IMG/VR virus record: IMGVR_UViG_3300032220_001634
DNA: 64,000 nucleotides
Direction: 5' to 3' (one strand)
DNA from: an uncultured virus (IMG/VR IMGVR_UViG_3300032220_001634)
Taxonomy: Duplodnaviria; Heunggongvirae; Uroviricota; Caudoviricetes
Of the stretch, positions 44,610 to 52,950 are shown in pieces (position 1 is the stretch's first letter; every line of letters begins with the position of its first letter). Under the pieces are notes generated by a model, which saw only the letters and a program-made list of their open reading frames with translations, did not search any database and had not been told where the DNA came from. The position numbers and the translations under genes are program-made.

Positions 44610-44740
44610 CTGTTTGTTTTGGTTTTTTTTGGTTCAATCTATATATTCTTGTTGATCCAAAAATCCCTTTGATGAAAATAAAATCCAATAAAAAAGGCAG
44701 ATTTAATACCTGCCTTTTCGAATTTATTAAAAAAATATAT

Positions 44741-45031
44741 TTATTCTGTGTTATGTGACATCCAATCTTCCATTTCTTTTCCTGTTTTTGGATTAACTTC
44801 TTTCAGATGCTCGAAAGTTATTTCATATCTTCCTAGTGTTACACTAGTTTCAAATGTCACGTCATGTAAGCTGTCAAAAAGAACGTTAAGCTCGTCGTAT
44901 TTTTTCTGAACTTCCTGAAGTTGTACTTCCTTTTCTTCTACCTTTCTGCCCGTTAAAAAAGAACTAACTAACCCTGAAATAAGCGTGGCTACTATGAGCC
45001 AGATCAAAGAAACCTTTTTCATTTTTTTCAT
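44741..45031 (-). CDS. Hypothetical membrane-anchored protein
   Basis: N-terminal TM helix plus coiled coil. Confidence 0.55.
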   Translation of the reverse strand: MKKMKKVSLIWLIVATLISGLVSSFLTGRKVEEKEVQLQEVQKKYDELNVLFDSLHDVTFETSVTLGRYEITFEHLKEVNPKTGKEMEDWMSHNTE

Positions 45032-45041
45032 TTTTATTTAG

Positions 45042-45113
45042 TAGTCTCGCACGGAGTCGAACCGAAATTACCTCCGTGAAAGGGAGGCGTCCTAACCATT
45101 AGACGACGAGACC
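45042..45113 (-). tRNA. tRNA-Glu(TTC)
   Basis: Cloverleaf, CCTCC-CTTTCAC-GGAGG. Confidence 0.9.
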
Positions 45114-45118
45114 AATTG

Positions 45119-45213
45119 CGGGAATAGGGGGAATCGAACCCTCCGTCACGTCCATGTTCCTTGCTATAAAAGCGAAGTACTGAGGATTGCTCTAAACACT
45201 GAGCTACATTCCC
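45119..45213 (-). ncRNA. tRNA-like RNA with enlarged anticodon arm
   Basis: Normal acceptor, D and T arms; ~38-nt anticodon domain. Confidence 0.65.
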
Positions 45214-45216
45214 TAG

Positions 45217-45303
45217 CGGAGGCTCAGGGATTCGAACCCCGGTTACGGTTTCCCGTAAAGCGGTTTTCAAGACCGCCGCATTCGACCGCTCTGCCAAACC
45301 TCC
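45217..45303 (-). tRNA. tRNA-Ser(TGA)
   Basis: GCGGT-CTTGAAA-ACCGC, long variable arm. Confidence 0.93.
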
Positions 45304-45500
45304 GATTGACACCCTGTTTTATCCAACTACAGATGTCGTGGTTGTCCCTGACAATTGCCAGGTTAGGAATAGCCATTTGTCCTCACGAGGTCGGGCTGAC
45401 TTGCCCTGACGTTCTCCCTATACGTCAATGTACGTTCCCATACGGTCATCACTCCGTTTCTTATCATATTGGGCATATTATTCGGGGATAAGCCGAAACG
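45304..45500 (-). ncRNA. Candidate structured ncRNA (~197 nt)
   Basis: GC-rich spacer with at least six hairpins, between tRNA-Asp and tRNA-Ser. Confidence 0.5.
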
Positions 45501-45502
45501 TG

Positions 45503-45576
45503 CGGTCCCTGCGGGATTCGAACCCGCGACCTCCGCCGTGACAGGGCGGCGTTGTGACCAACTCTACTAAGAGACC
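45503..45576 (-). tRNA. tRNA-Asp(GTC)
   Basis: CCGCC-CTGTCAC-GGCGG. Confidence 0.93.
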
Positions 45577-45580
45577 TCTG

Positions 45581-45653
45581 AGCGGGAGACCGGGCTCGAA
45601 CCGGCCACCTATAGCTTGGAAGGCTATCGCTCTACCAAATGAGCTACTCCCGC
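45581..45653 (-). tRNA. tRNA-Gly(TCC)
   Basis: ATAGC-CTTCCAA-GCTAT. Confidence 0.93.
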
Positions 45654-45657
45654 TTGA

Positions 45658-45796
45658 AAGATAATGTCGGAGTACCCGTCTCGCTCCAATCTTAACAGCT
45701 TCATCAGAGTTTTCTCTGGGCCCAGGCTGAGGGTGCTGAACTTTTTGGCTCCCGTTGGAATTGTCGACATTCACAACGGGAAAGAACCATTATCTT
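45658..45796 (-). ncRNA. Candidate structured ncRNA (139 nt)
   Basis: Perfect 9-bp terminal stem AAGATAATG/CATTATCTT enclosing several hairpins. Confidence 0.5.
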
Positions 45797-45797
45797 A

Positions 45798-45893
45798 GCT
45801 GACTAAAGGGAATTGAACCCAGTCCTCCGGCCCTGATTTCAGCTGTGAGGCTTACTTTCCGGGGCCAGTGTGCCGCCTTTACACTATAGCCAA
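45798..45893 (-). ncRNA. tRNA-like RNA with branched insertion in the anticodon arm
   Basis: Acceptor TTGGCTA/TAGTCAG, D arm, GGGTTCAATTCCC T arm, CTGGCCC/GGGCCGG stem enclosing 28 nt. Confidence 0.6.
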
Positions 45894-45942
45894 TCGGACG
45901 TTTCGAACCGTCCAGACTCAGGGTAATTAGTCATGAGTCCTG

Positions 45943-46015
45943 TTGCGAGGGAGGGATTCGAACCCCCGACCTCCGGGTTATGAGCCCGGCCAGATACCGC
46001 TTCTAACACCTCGCA
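45943..46015 (-). tRNA. tRNA-Met(CAT), initiator type
   Basis: CCGGG-CTCATAA-CCCGG with three G-C pairs next to the loop. Confidence 0.88.
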
Positions 46016-46017
46016 AT

Positions 46018-46566
46018 CTATATTTTAATGTGACTCCATCTTTTTTCAGACTTTATCATCGCTACTGTTGTTTTCGTAACATTTTCAAAAAGATTAGCTA
46101 TTTTTTGATAGCTTAATTTTCCCTCTTTTAGATGTCTTTTAATCTCAATAACAGTATTCTCTGTTATCTTACTTCTTCCGTTTTTCTCTCCCGTTAATCT
46201 AATCCCAACTCTACCTTCTGCCCTTTTACTTAATATTTTTTTTGTTTCCTCAGAATGAGATTTCCCCTTAAATCCGTTACTTCCCTCTCCTCCTGCAGTA
46301 CCATTTAGAATATTAAATCCCCAAGACTTTAATTGTGATATCCAATATGATTCTCTAAAAGACCAATCGGATTCATCTACAGTTTCTAATATTTCCATCT
46401 TTGGCATTTGTCCAGATTTCAAAAGATCGTGTATCCATATTTCCTTTTGGGTTCTTCTTTTTTTAGATTCCTTAAGGTGTATTTTAAATCTTTTTTCCGG
46501 GTTATTAGATTTTCCAACGTATCTAATCCCTTCCGAGTCAGATAAAATATAAATATAAGTTTCCAT
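46018..46566 (-). mobile_element. Free-standing GIY-YIG homing endonuclease with NUMOD3 motif
   Basis: YIYIL...RYVGKS..PEKRF..H, E..WI, NGTAGGEG, GKSHSEETKK. Confidence 0.88.
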
Positions 46567-46657
46567 ATATTATATATCAAATTAGACTTCTGAAACCAAT
46601 GAGCTAACACTTTTGATTTTATCTATACTTTCAAAGAGCTTTTGTTTTTATTACTCA

Positions 46658-46690
46658 GCAAATATATTATTGTTTCACGGAGTAAAAAAA
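46658..46690 (-). promoter_or_regulatory. Putative early promoter (repeat copy)
   Basis: TTTTTTTA-N3-CG-N11-TATATTTGC. Confidence 0.65.
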
Positions 46691-47680
46691 TTATTCTTCT
46701 GATTTTTTCAAACTTTCTTGAATAACACCGATTATTCTATAAGGATCAGCGTTAGCAGCAGGTCTACGATCTTCCAAATAACCTTTTTTAGTTTCCATTG
46801 TGGATTGAGGAATTCTAATAGAAGCTCCTCGATCAGAAACGCCATAAGAGAATTTATCGATGTGTTGGGTTTCATGAAGACCTGTCAGTCTTTTATCATT
46901 GTCAGACCCGTAACATTCCATGTGCTCTTTGTGTCTCTTTTCAAAAGCGTCAAAGATTTTTTCGAACGTCGTCCAATCACCCAAGCTTCTCATTTTCTCA
47001 GTTGAGAAATTTGTATGAAGTCCGGATCCATTCCAATCACCAGATAGTGGTTTAGGTAAATAGTTTACTTGAACATCAAATTTCTCTGCCACTCTATCCA
47101 AAAGATATCTTGCTACCCAAAGCTGATCTGCTGCATCAGTTCCTTGTCCAAAGATCTGAAATTCCCACTGTCCCAAAAGTACCTCCGCGTTTATTCCTGT
47201 TATTCCTAATCCTGCATGGAGACAACAATCTAAATGTGCCTCTACTATTTCTCTTCCTGATACACTTTTCGATCCAACACCGCAGTAGTACTTTCCTTGA
47301 GGATCTTGATTTTCCAGATTTCCGAATCCTAACGGAAGCCCGTTTTTGAATAAAACATACTCCTGTTCAAATCCCCACCAGTTGTCTTTTATATACTCAA
47401 CAGAACTTCTCATGTTTGTCTCATGAGGTGTACCGTCTGGATTTAGAACTTCACAAAGCACCAAGAAAGAATTTTCTCTCTGCGGATCAGGAAGCAACTT
47501 TACCGGTTGCAAGACGCAATCAGATTTTTTCCCTTCCGCTTGCATAGTTGAAGATCCATCAAAATTCCATCTAGGTAAATCCCCAACACTAACAACTTGA
47601 TTTATAATTTTAGTCTTAGATCTTAAATTTGGTTCTGGTTTATACCCGTCTAGCCAAATGTATTCGTACTTATACTTCAT
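46691..47680 (-). CDS. glnA: Glutamine synthetase (GSII type)
   Basis: EYIWLDG..NLRSKT, WNFDGSST, PQGKYYCG, NAEV..GQWEFQ, DWNGSGLHTNFS, RLTGLHET, GYLEDRRP. Confidence 0.95.
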   Translation of the reverse strand: MKYKYEYIWLDGYKPEPNLRSKTKIINQVVSVGDLPRWNFDGSSTMQAEGKKSDCVLQPVKLLPDPQRENSFLVLCEVLNPDGTPHETNMRSSVEYIKDNWWGFEQEYVLFKNGLPLGFGNLENQDPQGKYYCGVGSKSVSGREIVEAHLDCCLHAGLGITGINAEVLLGQWEFQIFGQGTDAADQLWVARYLLDRVAEKFDVQVNYLPKPLSGDWNGSGLHTNFSTEKMRSLGDWTTFEKIFDAFEKRHKEHMECYGSDNDKRLTGLHETQHIDKFSYGVSDRGASIRIPQSTMETKKGYLEDRRPAANADPYRIIGVIQESLKKSEE

Positions 47681-47749
47681 AGATTTACTTTAATTGTTAT
47701 ACACCTAAGGATTAAAAATGATTCATCTTACAGCTTATTTTTTTATCTG

Positions 47750-47835
47750 CGGAGAGCGGAGGAATCGAACCTCATGCAGTTACCCGCACGTCGCGCTTAG
47801 CAGGCGGACCTACTCACCGTTGTAGGTCGCTCTCC
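47750..47835 (-). tRNA. tRNA-Ser(GCT)
   Basis: CTGCTAA loop, long variable arm. Confidence 0.85.
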
Positions 47836-47840
47836 ATTAG

Positions 47841-47927
47841 TACCTCGGGTCGGGGTCGAACCGACACGGACCTTTCGGTCCACAAGATTTTAAGTCTTGC
47901 ATGTGCTACCAATTTCATCACCGAGGC
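47841..47927 (-). tRNA. tRNA-Leu(TAA)
   Basis: CAAGA-CTTAAAA-TCTTG, long variable arm. Confidence 0.92.
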
Positions 47928-47930
47928 ATA

Positions 47931-48005
47931 GGTTGACCGACCGGGTTCGAACCGGCGACGACAGGTGCCACAAACCTGTGCTCTACCAACTGAGCTACAG
48001 CCAAC
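47931..48005 (-). tRNA. tRNA-His(GTG)
   Basis: CAGGT-TTGTGGC-ACCTG. Confidence 0.9.
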
Positions 48006-48012
48006 ATGAAAA

Positions 48013-48453
48013 TTAAATCTCTTTTGTTTTCTCGAACTCTTCAGGGTCTACCTCTTTAATCGGGACAAACAAAGCGTATCCATCATCGTCTTCGAAATGA
48101 TTGCAAACATCTAAGAATACACCAAATTTATGTCTCCAGTATTCAAAGACATTTTTTTCTGCGTTCCATCTTGCCACCGTGCAATTTCTATGATTTCCTA
48201 AATAGCAATTTCCATGAACGAGATCTTTCTTAGGTATAGCTCCTGCCTTAATGAGTTTAGGAACATAGAATTCTCTATACTCATTTTTTTCAACCCTAGG
48301 TATTGCGGGGACATCATATGGATTCTCGAACTTTCCTAGAGTTTCCCAATGTTCTCTTATTCTAGCTTCTCTTTCATCATGAAGCCTTTTTCTCTCCTTC
48401 TCAAATTTAAGACGGAGTAGATCTTTGTTTTCCTGTTCCATTTCTTTTTTCAT
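48013..48453 (-). CDS. Hypothetical protein inside tRNA operon
   Basis: 146 aa ORF between tRNA-Cys and tRNA-His. Confidence 0.65.
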   Translation of the reverse strand: MKKEMEQENKDLLRLKFEKERKRLHDEREARIREHWETLGKFENPYDVPAIPRVEKNEYREFYVPKLIKAGAIPKKDLVHGNCYLGNHRNCTVARWNAEKNVFEYWRHKFGVFLDVCNHFEDDDGYALFVPIKEVDPEEFEKTKEI

Positions 48454-48468
48454 AATTTATTTTTTTAG

Positions 48469-48543
48469 AGACGCCGGTCAGATTCGAACTGACGGTTATA
48501 CAATTTTGCAGACCGTTGCTTTGGGCCACTCAGCCACAGCGTC
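48469..48543 (-). tRNA. tRNA-Cys(GCA)
   Basis: CTGCAAA loop, U discriminator. Confidence 0.9.
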
Positions 48544-48552
48544 TTATTTTAG

Positions 48553-48625
48553 AGGACAGTGTCGGATTCGAACCAACTTCCCGTGATTACAAATCACGTA
48601 TTCTAACCAGTTGAACTAACCGTCC
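48553..48625 (-). tRNA. tRNA-Thr(TGT)
   Basis: CGTGA-TTTGTAA-TCACG. Confidence 0.9.
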
Positions 48626-48660
48626 TTTTTAGCTTACATTATGCCAAAGATCACTACAAA

Positions 48661-48699
48661 GAAAAAGGTCTCTTAGTTTTTGACTAAGAGACCTTTTTT
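48661..48699 (-). terminator. Attenuator terminator of tRNA operon 2
   Basis: AAAAAGGTCTCTTAGT-CAAAA-ACTAAGAGACCTTTTT. Confidence 0.85.
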
Positions 48700-48718
48700 A
48701 TATGACTTTATTAAAATC

Positions 48719-48805
48719 TTATTTATCCCTTAGTACAGTGCAAGTTTCCCCGTCACATAACGTTGATGTGTGGCTACTCGATTCTGTATGGAATAAATTT
48801 TTCAT
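48719..48805 (-). CDS. Putative leader peptide 2, MKNLFHTESSSHTSTLCDGETCTVLRDK
   Basis: 28-codon ORF between promoters and terminator; its 3' end is complementary to the terminator 5' arm. Confidence 0.8.
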   Translation of the reverse strand: MKNLFHTESSSHTSTLCDGETCTVLRDK

Positions 48806-48842
48806 TTGCTTTTTATATATCTTTTCGATTTCTTAATTTTAC

Positions 48843-48875
48843 CCAAAGATAAAAAAAAGTTTCGAAATAAAAAAA
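48843..48875 (-). promoter_or_regulatory. Putative early promoter of tRNA operon 2 (GATATATA motif also at 48814-48821)
   Basis: TTTTTTTA-N3-CG-N11-TATCTTTGG. Confidence 0.7.
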
Positions 48876-48989
48876 TATTACATAGGGTTTTTATGTTGGT
48901 ATTCCTACCTATAGTCAGTGACCCGTTAAATCATAATTTTTTGTCCACTGTAATAATTTCTCCTCTATATATAAAAATAAAAAAAAGTT

Positions 48990-49553
48990 ATGAGAAAGAT
49001 TTTACTGGCATTAGCCTTATTAATTCCCGTTTTGAGTCAAGCGCAGGAATTCACCTTTAATTCCTACGTCGATCAGGAAGTTTCTTGTTTTGGAAACAAT
49101 GATGGAACTATTCAATCCGAAGCATCCCCTGTAGGAAATTACGTGTACTCAATATCAAGAGGAACGACATTTAAAGATTCGAACAATTCAGGTACATTTT
49201 ATAAGTTAGAACCCGGAACCTATAAATCTTGCGGCAGTAACGGAAAGATTAAAAAATGTGTTACTTTAAAAGTTACACAGCCTAAAAAACTAGATATTAA
49301 TTTTATAGTAAATAAATACCCAACTATAAATGACAATAATGGAATATTGGCGGTTGAACTTAAAGGTGGAACTACAGAGATTCAGCCTTATTTAGTTACA
49401 TGGAAAAATAGCAGCTGTAAAATAATGAATAGCGAAGATCAGATGTATCCTATGGAAATGGATAAATTGCCCGCTGATTCTTATATTGTTACTATCGAAG
49501 ATGACAGAGGATGTTTTCTGACAAGATCCTACGATTTATTGCTGAAGAAATAA
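48990..49553 (+). CDS. Secreted SprB-repeat-like protein
   Basis: Signal peptide, VSCFGNNDGTI, GGT...PY..TW, Y.VTIEDDRGC. Confidence 0.7.
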   Translation: MRKILLALALLIPVLSQAQEFTFNSYVDQEVSCFGNNDGTIQSEASPVGNYVYSISRGTTFKDSNNSGTFYKLEPGTYKSCGSNGKIKKCVTLKVTQPKKLDINFIVNKYPTINDNNGILAVELKGGTTEIQPYLVTWKNSSCKIMNSEDQMYPMEMDKLPADSYIVTIEDDRGCFLTRSYDLLLKK

Positions 49554-49554
49554 G

Positions 49555-49626
49555 CAGTCCCAAAAGGATTCGAACCCTTACCGCTTGATCCGTAGTCAAG
49601 AATGCTATCCATTACACCATAGGACT
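49555..49626 (-). tRNA. tRNA-Arg(ACG)
   Basis: CTTGA-CTACGGA-TCAAG. Confidence 0.9.
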
Positions 49627-50340: not shown

Positions 50341-50384
50341 GTAAAGATAAAACAAAATTACGAGATAAAAAAATATTTAACCGA

Positions 50385-50606
50385 TTATTTCCATTTTGTT
50401 TTTCTATTGTACTTCCATGTTTTGTACTCACATACTTTTTGCCATGAAATTCTTTTATTGGGATTTTTATAACCTCTTTTATAATAAGGATAGAAATTCA
50501 ATCCCTCATCCCAGTAAAGTGGATACCATTCATTTAAAGAGATTAAGTGGTAATCCCTACCACATTCTGCTTTTCCAAGCTTTGCTCTGTTTCTGTGTTT
50601 TGACAT
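50385..50606 (-). CDS. Small basic hypothetical protein
   Basis: 73 aa Lys/Tyr/Trp-rich ORF ending in YKTWKYNRKTKWK. Confidence 0.55.
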   Translation of the reverse strand: MSKHRNRAKLGKAECGRDYHLISLNEWYPLYWDEGLNFYPYYKRGYKNPNKRISWQKVCEYKTWKYNRKTKWK

Positions 50607-51700: not shown

Positions 51701-51823
51701 CTAGCCATGATTTATATCTCCGGATTTATTTTCAATATTATACCATTTAGCATTACCCACCTGGATAGCCGGGAAGCCTGCTGGCATAAATTGTTTAGCG
51801 ATATTTCCGAAGTTTTTCTTCAT
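51701..51823 (-). CDS. Putative leader peptide 1, MKKNFGNIAKQFMPAGFPAIQVGNAKWYNIENKSGDINHG
   Basis: 40-codon ORF after GATATATA (51844-51851); contains ATCCGGAG, complementary to the terminator 5' arm. Confidence 0.82.
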   Translation of the reverse strand: MKKNFGNIAKQFMPAGFPAIQVGNAKWYNIENKSGDINHG

Positions 51824-51897
51824 TTTTATTTAATTGTGGATATTATATATCATTTCTCTTTTTTGTTTCTCTGAATAATAAGATATATTTTAATCTA

Positions 51898-52950
51898 TTA
51901 TTTTTTATATTTCCACCTAGCCCTAGTGCAATTTTCAGGTTTTCTATTTTTCTTAAGGTATAGATTTATATAGCCAATCATATTACCGGCTCCTATAGGG
52001 TTAGCAGAATGCACGTAACACTGGGGTAAGTCAGTGCTGGATTTTTCAGAATGATCAGTCAACCATCTGACAACGTCCATTCCTGTCTTTTCCTTTATCT
52101 GCGTGTAATCAACCTCATAATTACTCTTCACGTGAGAATAATAGTGTGCAGTAGCGCTTTCGTCTAAATCGTGATCTAGAGAAATTATGTCTATATTTGA
52201 TAATCCGATTTCAGTAACTTTATTAACAAACTCATCGAAGTTCTTAACTACTATCCAATCATTTCCTTTAGGATGTTCCAGAGGTATTCTAAAGTCATCT
52301 AAATATATTGAAACCTTAGGTTCTTTCTTAACAAACCATGTACCGAGCCATTCCTGGGTGATTCCTAAATCGTATCCATGTGCTTGACAAAATTCATCCA
52401 CAGCAGGATTGACTCCAAAAACACCACCATAAGAAGACTCTCCGGTTGGTGAAGTTAAATAGATGTGCTTATCTTTACCATTTTCAGCAAAGGGTGGTTC
52501 TTCCCAATTCAAATCAAGATAGTCGTGTCCGCATAAACATCCACCTCTTTTAACTTTTCTATACCATAAGTTTATATCTTGCTTTACATAGTCATAAGCA
52601 TGATTTGCGTCAATATAAACAAAGTCTAATGAATTATCTTGAAAGAGATCTGCAGCAATCTCGGAAGTTGCTCTGATCATTATTCCCCTATCTTCTAATC
52701 CTGAGGTGTTTCTCATTGCTTCTCCGTAAACTCCATTTTCAAAATTTCCGTGATTCGAAGAGTCAACATACTCATCTCCGAGCGGTCTCCACACATCGAC
52801 CATATAAAGTTTCCCTTCCCAGATTTCCAAAATCTTTTTAGAAAATTCCCCTTTGAATGTACCAACCTCAACTCCTTTCCCCTGTGGGAATTCCAAGCCA
52901 ATCTCTCTGATAAGATCAATCCTGTCTATATTTCTTTTATTTACTCTCAT
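51898..52950 (-). CDS. Methyltransferase fused to a cyclic-phosphate-processing receiver-like domain
   Basis: EVGTFKG, YIDANHAY, GHDY; C-terminal IYLDDFRIP...ISLDHDL...TGMD...VHSANPIGA. Confidence 0.75.
   Translation of the reverse strand: MRVNKRNIDRIDLIREIGLEFPQGKGVEVGTFKGEFSKKILEIWEGKLYMVDVWRPLGDEYVDSSNHGNFENGVYGEAMRNTSGLEDRGIMIRATSEIAADLFQDNSLDFVYIDANHAYDYVKQDINLWYRKVKRGGCLCGHDYLDLNWEEPPFAENGKDKHIYLTSPTGESSYGGVFGVNPAVDEFCQAHGYDLGITQEWLGTWFVKKEPKVSIYLDDFRIPLEHPKGNDWIVVKNFDEFVNKVTEIGLSNIDIISLDHDLDESATAHYYSHVKSNYEVDYTQIKEKTGMDVVRWLTDHSEKSSTDLPQCYVHSANPIGAGNMIGYINLYLKKNRKPENCTRARWKYKK

Follow-up and report, generated by a model that had tools for sequence, protein, structure and literature searches.

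Transfer RNA (tRNA) genes carried by phages have been explained by compensation for codon usage and, more recently, by the replacement of tRNAs that are destroyed by host immunity; to our knowledge, how and when these genes are expressed has hardly been addressed. Here we describe the leader region of a tRNA transcription unit, referred to as unit 2, in the DNA of an uncultured virus of the Caudoviricetes (IMG/VR record IMGVR_UViG_3300032220_001634). The window, i.e. the whole stretch of 64,000 nucleotides (nt) that was analysed, contains 25 tRNA genes according to ARAGORN, all of which lie on the minus strand. Ahead of unit 2, a short open reading frame (ORF) sits between a promoter motif at 48844-48875 and the first tRNA gene, which starts at 48625, and this ORF is followed by a hairpin of 16 pairs (48698-48662) that resembles an intrinsic terminator. 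A previous reading made from the letters of the DNA (the sequence-only reading) had placed promoters, ORF and terminator here and had taken them for an attenuator. The elements were indeed recovered at these places, as listed below.

48844-48875, minus strand: promoter, consisting of a T-run, CGAAAC and then a Bacteroidota-type -7 box, TAtcTTTG
48813-48821, minus strand: conserved GATATATAA box, 7 nt upstream of the leader ATG
48719-48805, minus strand: leader ORF of 28 codons, MKNLFHTESSSHTSTLCDGETCTVLRDK, with its ATG at 48805 and its TAA at 48719-48721
48784-48798, minus strand: region 1 (ORF nt 8-22, AUUUAUUCC..UACAG), which pairs with region 2 in minimum-free-energy folds without a ribosome
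48737-48790, minus strand: core, codons 6-23 (HTESSSHTSTLCDGETCT), the putative regulatory codons, with the run of cognate codons
48754-48770, minus strand: small conserved hairpin in the core (CACAU / AUGUG), from the RNAalifold consensus of alignment A2
48721-48738, minus strand: region 2 including the antiterminator ACTAAGGGAT (48725-48734), extending over the last five sense codons into the stop codon
48662-48698, minus strand: intrinsic terminator (regions 3 and 4), with a 16-bp stem, a loop of 5 and the U-run TTTTTCTTTG

Leader, promoter and genes of unit 2

The composite promoter motif (T-run..GAAAC..TAnnTTTG) occurs exactly twice in the 64-kb window, at 48844-48875 and at 46659-46690, with 0.01 occurrences expected. 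Its -7 box, TATCTTTG at 48844-48851, lies 38 nt 5' of the leader ATG; TAnnTTTG is the -7 consensus of Bacteroidota housekeeping-type promoters. A pattern search found the motif ahead of the leader in 11 of 12 homologous leaders from related loci, the exception being L050, where the box reads TAATATTG, and the TA and TTG of the box show no variation among the 12. Most of the other leader families described below also have a TAnnTTTG-like box, mostly exact, about 20-60 nt 5' of the ATG. A scan for sigma-70 promoters was uninformative (25 sites vs 29.8 expected). The GATATATAA box, for which a translation-initiation region and a -10-like element are candidate roles, is present in seven copies in the window vs 1.7 expected, a number that was reached in 0/100 shuffles. 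The copies (48813-48821, 51843-51851, 46570-46578 and four more) include sites 3-22 nt before the ATG of both leaders of the window, i.e. that of unit 2 and that of a second tRNA operon, unit 1, and of the homing-endonuclease gene of unit 2; ATATATAA is invariant in 12/12 homologous leaders. The leader ATG is aligned in ten close homologues and lies 14 alignment columns further on in L073 and L124, and the homologous ORFs have lengths of 28-33 codons (n=12).

Downstream of the hairpin, ARAGORN places the ten tRNA genes of the unit where the sequence-only reading had them, and Pfam domains bear out its assignment of the two protein genes as glnA and a homing endonuclease. The genes and remaining features of the unit are as follows.

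48552-48625, minus strand: tRNA-Thr(UGU), the first gene, 36 nt 3' of the terminator (ARAGORN)
48468-48543, minus strand: tRNA-Cys(GCA) (ARAGORN)
48013-48453, minus strand: ORF of 146 amino acids (aa) conserved inside tRNA arrays, matching phrog_18490, a family of unknown function
47749-48004, minus strand: tRNA-His(GUG), tRNA-Leu(UAA) and tRNA-Ser(GCU) (ARAGORN)
46691-47680, minus strand: short glutamine-synthetase-like gene glnA, 329 aa (Pfam Gln-synt_N and Gln-synt_C)
46659-46690, minus strand: second promoter of the same type (composite motif), without a leader, for the distal block
46018-46566, minus strand: GIY-YIG homing-endonuclease gene, 182 aa (Pfam GIY-YIG), between the second promoter and tRNA-fMet
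45041-46015, minus strand: distal tRNAs, i.e. initiator-like Met(CAU), Gly(UCC), Asp(GUC), Ser(UGA) and Glu(UUC) (ARAGORN)
44691-44719, minus strand: next strong terminator, behind a 96-aa ORF (44741-45031); the unit probably ends here

The tRNA-Met is called initiator-like because its gene shows, by eye, the C1xA72 mismatch as well as three G-C pairs that adjoin the anticodon loop. No strong terminator was found between 48662 and 44719, and the 36-nt gap between the hairpin and tRNA-Thr contains no promoter motif. As there is no other composite promoter between the leader terminator and glnA, the proximal genes need read-through of the hairpin for their expression. The gap itself (48626-48661; columns 289-299 of alignment A2) carries in homologous leaders a conserved TCTTTGAC(A) block, the version of which in the window is TCTTTGGCA.

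Codon content of the leaders and their tRNA arrays

According to the sequence-only reading, codons 6-23 of the leader are drawn solely from those for H, T, E, S, L, C, D and G, and include AGT/AGC, TCG/TCA and TTA; both statements are correct. Cognate codons were counted by a strict wobble rule, in which U34 reads A or G, G34 reads C or U, and CAT reads ATG only. Under this rule, 18 of the 27 post-start codons of the leader are cognate to unit-2 tRNAs (p = 1.2e-3), the expected fraction being 0.361 as derived from 110,256 codons of the long ORFs of related loci and the tRNA region of the window, and all of the non-Met tRNAs of the unit (9/9) are represented. Codons 6-20 form a strictly cognate run of 15 codons from 48790, which is the longest of 24,652 runs in the six frames, the next one having 9 codons. 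Furthermore, at least 18 cognate codons together with 9/9 non-Met tRNAs are found in just 9 of 34,749 stop-free segments of 27 codons, 8 of which are the leader itself. When the relaxed four-box reading by U34 is allowed, the run in the leader has 18 codons and G/S/T-rich repeats elsewhere yield longer ones (62, 38, 38, 23, 21 and 20 codons); the strict measure is therefore the informative one.

Complementary codon sets had been described for the two leaders of the window, and the counts agree with this description: the unit-2 leader scores 18/27 on its own unit and 6/27 on unit 1, and the operon-1 leader (51701-51823, minus strand) scores 25/39 on its own unit and 6/39 on unit 2. The latter leader contains four Ile codons (ATC twice, ATT and ATA); the window has no tRNA-Ile(GAU), and in the related loci L064 and L065 a tRNA-Ile(GAU) gene lies in the unit that matches operon 1. 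These Ile codons suggest that the operon-1 leader lags behind gene loss. Inside unit 1, a T-run followed by TAATTTTG (50353-50385, minus strand) stands just upstream of tRNA-Val and tRNA-Tyr, and may be an internal promoter. A third tRNA cluster of the window (54237-53783) is preceded by a 67-aa lipoprotein-like ORF, which was rejected as a leader, only 2/66 of its codons being cognate.

Relatives were reached through the proteins of the unit. The glnA-like protein led at 69% identity to L001. This locus has a homologous leader, MKNLFHTTTSSSTSTSSCDEDTRALLRDR, and a hairpin that shows compensatory changes, both ahead of tRNA genes for Ser, Ser, Thr, Cys, His, Thr, Ser, Glu and Asp; among the 10 loci of glnA relatives that were scanned, arrays occur in L001 and L008 only, seven have no tRNA gene and L017 has one. 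L008 keeps the T-run and CGAAAC of the promoter, the odd tRNA that starts directly behind it is untypable by ARAGORN (a two-base anticodon call), and L063 has, by comparison of gene lists, the same tRNA order. A metagenome scan anchored on the alignment of the 146-aa ORF gave 80 loci, of which 73 have at least one tRNA gene and most have arrays. A degenerate 20-mer for MKNLFHT hit 32 stretches of viral contigs, two of which, of the L001 lineage, have a leader-type ORF and a hairpin, the other 30 being chance matches; and the 51-aa ORF before tRNA-Ser in the cultured Flavobacterium phage immuto was rejected as an attenuator, as no terminator hairpin was visible there by eye, and this phage thus provides no model in culture.

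Leaders were also collected by a blind rule that ignores composition. It requires a hairpin of at least 9 pairs with a U-run, located at most 300 nt upstream of a tRNA gene on the same strand, and an ORF of 15-60 codons that starts with ATG and ends from 5 nt inside to 45 nt before the hairpin. The rule yielded 74 units of uncultured phages, 66 of them distinct, with 19 clusters of leader peptides. For permutation, one representative of each family was taken (16 families, two doubtful units included). The codons cognate to the own array sum to 271, compared with 160.6 +/- 15.6 (maximum 235) when the arrays are permuted, and 0/500,000 permutations reach 271; the own array is ranked first of 16 by 14 of the 16 leaders. 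With automatic clustering (19 clusters) and 300 random choices of representatives, z ranges from 6.1 to 8.4, and 0/2,000 permutations reach the observed value. The match extends to the synonymous level, where 138 of 187 informative codons are cognate vs 97.1 expected (z 6.4), the window leader alone contributing 10/13 vs 7.6. Thus the codon bias that had been proposed from one phage is kept in relatives, the own-unit match across the 19 leader clusters being far beyond permutation.

Individual families illustrate this match. The leader MKTLITLQPRHLQHPQL is followed by an array of Arg, Arg, Pro, His, Gln, Gln and Leu tRNAs, MTTLVNIKKSISVIVKHI by Lys, Ile, Ile, His and Val, and ..SWSYSPCSAYP.. 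by Tyr, Pro, Ser, Trp and Cys; the cores of further families differ from one another (FTICSKWAEV, NNPLSGNGRGIY, LQPRQLQHP and IKKSISVIVKHI), and each matches its own array. Rewriting of the core is seen in the homologous leaders of L055 (2261-2359) and L123 (2624-2722), which share promoter, initial codons, tail, spacer and terminator, with 65/79 and 95/104 identical positions in the two flanks (82-91%) vs 14/33 (42%) in the 11-codon core. The core of L055 reads FTICSKWADER and its array is Ile, Phe, Lys, Trp, Arg, Cys, His, Met and Asp, while L123 has FMNPQITWNEQ and an array of Pro, Asn, Trp, Gln, Thr and Asp. To judge from these sequences, the replacement of the core follows the change in array content. 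In the family of the window leader, complete or long arrays have cognate leader codons for 54 of the 58 tRNA classes present.

Alternative folds and the proposed attenuator

The terminator hairpin has an energy of -21.4 kcal/mol, and across the 12 homologues 92.3% of the cells of its helix are paired, with three compensatory pairs and covariation above that in 500/500 shuffles. Its 5' arm, GTCTCTTAGT (48683-48692), can pair instead with ACTAAGGGAT (48725-48734) at the end of the leader ORF, in 10/10 pairs of which two are G-U, just as the sequence-only reading had it; this duplex has -12.2 kcal/mol (z -2.2). Persistence of the pairing in relatives had been set beforehand as a check, and in the 12 homologous leaders 93.6% of the cells of the antiterminator register are paired, vs 37-62% with the partner slid. 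In L064, L065 and L072 a +1 insertion changes the tail of the peptide (..CDEDNLRYTKG) yet CTAAGGGATAA is kept, so that this part of the leader is constrained as RNA.

The same arrangement recurs in leaders of other families. In 20/20 leaders tested, the best complement to the 5' arm of the terminator begins 9-38 nt before the stop codon, and for 14 of these 20 at most 1 in 20 shuffles bound the arm equally well. The distance from the stop codon to the hairpin is 14-38 nt in the 20 leaders, and 20 nt in the window. Compensatory variants occur in the FTICSKW family, in which antiterminator and arm change together (GTCTCGA/TCGGGAC vs GTCTCAG/CTGAGAC). In folds without the terminator, the antiterminator segment pairs upstream within the leader in 22/22 cases, its partner being the 5' end of the ORF in 17 and the middle of the ORF in 5. 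In the window, this 1:2 pairing is formed by AUUUAUUCC (ORF nt 8-16) with GGGAUAAAU; TTTATTCC of region 1 is identical in 10/10 close homologues, synonymous sites of codons 3-6 included, and no covariation is countable there. The first five and the last five codons of the leader are non-cognate, as would be expected if they form regions 1 and 2.

Folding with parts of the leader masked agrees with the classical attenuation scheme. When ORF nt 1-48 are masked and the terminator still lacks its 3' arm, the 2:3 helix is the minimum-free-energy fold; in a footprint model with a ribosome over the stop codon, the terminator alone forms (-21.4 kcal/mol). The small hairpin in the core has 8 pairs, with compensatory changes in 3 (RNAalifold), and is also part of the minimum-free-energy fold of the window leader; a pause hairpin for RNA polymerase is a candidate role. 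At the gathering score, Rfam matches are to tRNA only, with no leader family and no T-box among them, and the best score of a leader-type family is that of Phe_leader, 25.5 bits on the opposite strand vs a threshold of 55.

In terms of these model folds, the layout is that of the trp-type 1:2 / 2:3 / 3:4 design. Taking the folds and the codon match together, we consider it likely, with good though incomplete confidence, that the region is a leader-peptide (ribosome-mediated) transcription attenuator that gates the tRNA unit of the phage. The proposed course of events is as follows. Transcription is predicted to start at the 48844-48875 promoter, and the 28-codon leader, whose core codons 6-23 are those of the tRNAs encoded downstream, would then be translated. 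When the aminoacyl-tRNAs are plentiful, the ribosome would reach the stop codon and mask region 2 (48721-48738); the 48662-48698 hairpin would form, and transcription would end 36 nt before tRNA-Thr. When any cognate tRNA is scarce, the ribosome would stall in the core and keep region 1 (48784-48798) from region 2, which could then pair with the 5' arm of the terminator, allowing RNA polymerase to read through into Thr, Cys, the 146-aa ORF, His, Leu, Ser and glnA and, there being no strong terminator before 44719, further over the distal Met, Gly, Asp, Ser and Glu genes. Such a circuit would amount to negative feedback on the supply of exactly those isoacceptors that the cassette encodes.

Several points weigh against this attenuator or limit its reach. 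The first is the second promoter, to which the sequence-only reading had added a caveat that proved right and stronger than stated: the promoter at 46659-46690 is conserved in relatives just upstream of tRNA-Met, with spacings of tens to about 200 nt in six relative loci and of about 800 nt in L019; in L117 the tRNA that comes about 40 nt after a promoter of this type is an odd one. The distal five tRNAs are therefore at most partly under attenuator control, and the distal block is, as predicted from its motif, expressed at least in part by its own promoter; 6 of the 18 core codons (GAA twice, TCG, TCA, GAC and GGG) are decoded only by distal tRNAs. The GIY-YIG gene of the window is an insertion between this promoter and tRNA-fMet: among the eight promoter-bearing loci with ORFs listed, seven have no ORF of at least 80 aa in this interval, and the eighth, L069, has only a 92-aa minus-strand ORF that overlaps the promoter.

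Other points concern the codon match. Only 18 of the 27 codons are strictly cognate, the two ACT codons require four-box reading by U34, and, as each tRNA is sampled by 1-3 codons, sensitivity to a single species may be low. Among the 16 blind-rule units used for permutation, two mismatch their own array (L075, rank 4; L073:2337, rank 7). In the family of the window leader, absent tRNA classes also have cognate codons, in 24 of 33 cases, so that the difference from the present classes is modest (54/4 vs 24/9, Fisher p = 0.01); some members have leader codons for which the unit encodes no tRNA, or a tRNA that no leader codon matches. Part of this mismatch is an annotation gap, because a divergent Ser(UGA)-like tRNA of class II, located directly behind the terminator, escaped ARAGORN in L064, L065, L072, L073, L116, L117 and L119. 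This conserved gene is 83 nt long (L065:6746-6828), with a TGA anticodon and an unusual T-loop, and the L065 copy scores 44 bits against the Sec model of the Rfam tRNA clan, whose threshold is 47. At L008 (5190-5300), a tRNA follows directly after the promoter, with neither leader nor terminator.

As to the folds, the covariation of the antiterminator is weak inside the window-leader family, where 122/500 shuffles reach it, and before the 3' arm is made the ribosome-free state is ambiguous (-22.9 kcal/mol for 2:3 vs -21.6 for 1:2). In addition, the mechanism presupposes a sufficiently tight coupling of transcription and translation in Bacteroidota.

The strongest of the alternatives keeps the same hardware and changes the signal, which would be amino-acid starvation or general translation stress in place of tRNA abundance; on a drop in charging, the phage would step up its tRNAs, glnA and the genes around them. 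Since the ribosome senses aminoacyl-tRNA, low charging is to it the same as a low tRNA level (the established principle of trp/his attenuation; see also PMC1183508), and a glutamine-synthetase-like gene does lie inside the unit. However, starvation for an amino acid is not relieved by making more tRNA, no glnA was found near most of the 66 distinct units, the leaders track the anticodons of their own units down to the synonymous sites (138/187 vs 97.1, as given above), and the core is rewritten upon a change in tRNA content. We therefore regard these signals as unlikely.

A reversed, feed-forward logic, in which smooth translation of the leader favours read-through and the array is made only if its tRNAs suffice, draws on the ribosome-free fold, which slightly favours 2:3 and makes a default-ON state conceivable. 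The geometry, however, is that of trp-type attenuators: with the stop codon placed as it is in the window and in the other leaders, a terminating ribosome would cover region 2 and not the arm, and the footprint model leaves the terminator as the sole structure when region 2 is masked. This makes the feed-forward logic very improbable.

Even less credit is due to two readings in which the ribosome plays no sensing part. The window peptide, taken alone, does resemble a conserved N-terminal leader with an S/T/C-rich core, and might be a functional small peptide, e.g. the precursor of a Ser/Thr/Cys-rich modified peptide, the tRNAs being independent and the codon match incidental; but the cores of the other families are unlike it and each matches its own array, the tail is frameshifted while its nucleotides are kept, the synonymous sites of codons 3-6 are invariant, and independent tRNAs would lack a promoter motif in the gap before tRNA-Thr. 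An RNA-only switch, in which an untranslated leader RNA binds tRNAs or a protein directly (T-box-like or protein-mediated), would suit the strong structure of the whole leader RNA (-45.1 kcal/mol, z -6.6), but is equally hard to believe given the lack of a T-box or any other Rfam leader family at threshold, the ATG and frame kept in 12 homologues, the ATG ORF that ends at the given distance before the hairpin in 20/20 leaders, and a match that concerns in-frame codons.

If the attenuator is accepted, a wider reading can be put forward tentatively, although we rate it as somewhat short of probable: each phage tRNA cassette may be an inducible spare-parts kit with the leader as its parts list, the core reporting depletion of the encoded isoacceptors and so switching the cassette on. 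The depletion could be caused by host anticodon nucleases or by phage-driven decay of host tRNAs, and the core would be an evolvable module that is rewritten upon gain or loss of tRNA genes, as exemplified by L055 and L123.

Comparison with known systems and surroundings of the unit

Leader-peptide attenuators are well known from the amino-acid operons of enterobacteria, such as trp, his, leu and pheA, and the multivalent thr and ilvGMEDA. The phage leader is similar to leaders of the trp, his and ilv type in that a short ORF with regulatory codons precedes an intrinsic terminator before the first gene, to the trp type in that region 2 is predicted to pair with either region 1 or the 5' arm of the terminator and would be covered by a ribosome terminating at the stop codon, and to the thr and ilv leaders in that several amino acids would be sensed together. 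Unlike them, it precedes no biosynthesis or synthetase operon but a unit of ten tRNA genes, the 146-aa ORF, the glnA-like gene and the homing endonuclease; its core lists eight amino acids (up to about 16 in relatives) by 1-3 codons each instead of a run of a single codon; its match reaches synonymous codons in an anticodon-specific manner; and it is borne by a phage, has a Bacteroidota-type promoter and shows no sequence or Rfam relationship to them.

In E. coli, pheST is attenuated through the pheM leader, by which one amino acid is sensed and the phenylalanyl-tRNA synthetase is controlled. Here too a leader-peptide attenuator governs a component of the translation apparatus and not amino-acid synthesis, but in the phage the product would be the sensed tRNA species themselves, and hence the feedback would be direct. 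The T-box, on the other hand, binds uncharged tRNA directly via one specifier codon without a ribosome, and controls genes of synthetases, transport and biosynthesis; it shares with the phage leader the codon-anticodon reading of the state of specific tRNAs and the terminator/antiterminator switch, but the phage leader is a translated ORF with many codons. The hardware is thus known (trp/his/ilv type), and what differs is the tRNA-gene target, the parts list of many codons and the match at the anticodon level.

According to two reports, phage tRNAs serve in counter-defence against tRNA-cleaving immunity, T5 tRNA-Lys against PARIS (PMC11464382) and a phage tRNA-Tyr against retron-Eco7/PtuAB (PMC11555353), and such systems offer a reason why a phage may need particular extra tRNAs only under some conditions. 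The latter report describes expression of phage tRNAs as driven by a promoter, a strong phage tRNA promoter, and the strings 'attenuat' and 'leader' are absent from its main text (PMC11555353) and from that of another paper on phage tRNAs. Full-text literature searches, with subscription-only papers and older literature outside their scope, gave no account of attenuators on tRNA genes.

If our interpretation is true, tRNA genes under feedback control through ribosome-sensed tRNA supply would be described here for the first time, a textbook mechanism would be extended to a new class of targets, and the tRNAs that become limiting during infection would be readable from sequence. The recurrence of the design in at least 19 unrelated leader sequences of uncultured freshwater phages implies strong selection and a modular, rewritable sensor, which synthetic biology could reuse as a codon- or tRNA-specific transcription switch. 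Should the spare-parts kit also be real, the leader would act as a sensor by which a virus detects tRNA-targeting immunity, and would give a general rule for which tRNAs a phage treats as limiting.

Among the other genes of unit 2, the 146-aa ORF is conserved in the arrays of at least 80 metagenome loci, with an invariant CNHFEDD motif (alignments A1 and A3). Its AlphaFold model is confident, with a predicted local distance difference test (pLDDT) score of 88.1, and no convincing fold match was found, the best Foldseek E-value being 0.17 and the best VIA Z 4.2 (root-mean-square deviation 3.4 over 67 residues). The C-terminal half of the protein is present in cultured jumbo phages of Erwinia, Serratia, Yersinia and Caulobacter. 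LR756501, a 735-kb uncultured phage with a 57% match to the ORF, was dropped, since ARAGORN found no tRNA in the 18-kb region.

The window is AT-rich, with a G+C content of about 0.36, and carries phage genes for an SbcC-like nuclease, a DnaB-like helicase, a Clp-type ATPase, a collagen-like tail fibre and an endolysin, as well as one protein with a type-IX-secretion sorting tail; the sequencing runs that contain the stretch are labelled metagenome (the best matches) or freshwater metagenome. From these genes and signals we read it as a large uncultured phage with a host from the Bacteroidota. BLASTN of 45000-49600 against 50,697 phage records found no close cultured relative, the best among the matches listed being tRNA-length stretches or covering at most 5% of the query.

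A few further observations were made in related loci and around the two tRNA units. ARAGORN reported tRNAs with the anticodons CTA (amber-reading) and TCA (opal-reading), which it names Pyl and SeC, at L017:2352-2427, L094:4030, L109:2981 and L119:1431; suppressor tRNAs or stop-codon recoding are possible explanations. Between units 1 and 2, on the opposite strand (48990-49553, plus strand), lies a gene for a secreted protein of 187 aa, which has a signal peptide and matches the SprB repeat weakly (22.5 bits, under the 28-bit cut-off). Just upstream of the operon-1 leader, a 350-aa protein (51898-52950, minus strand) has both a methyltransferase domain and a 'cyclic-phosphate processing receiver' domain (cREC_REC), and we suggest that it may act in the repair of RNA or tRNA beside the tRNA arrays.

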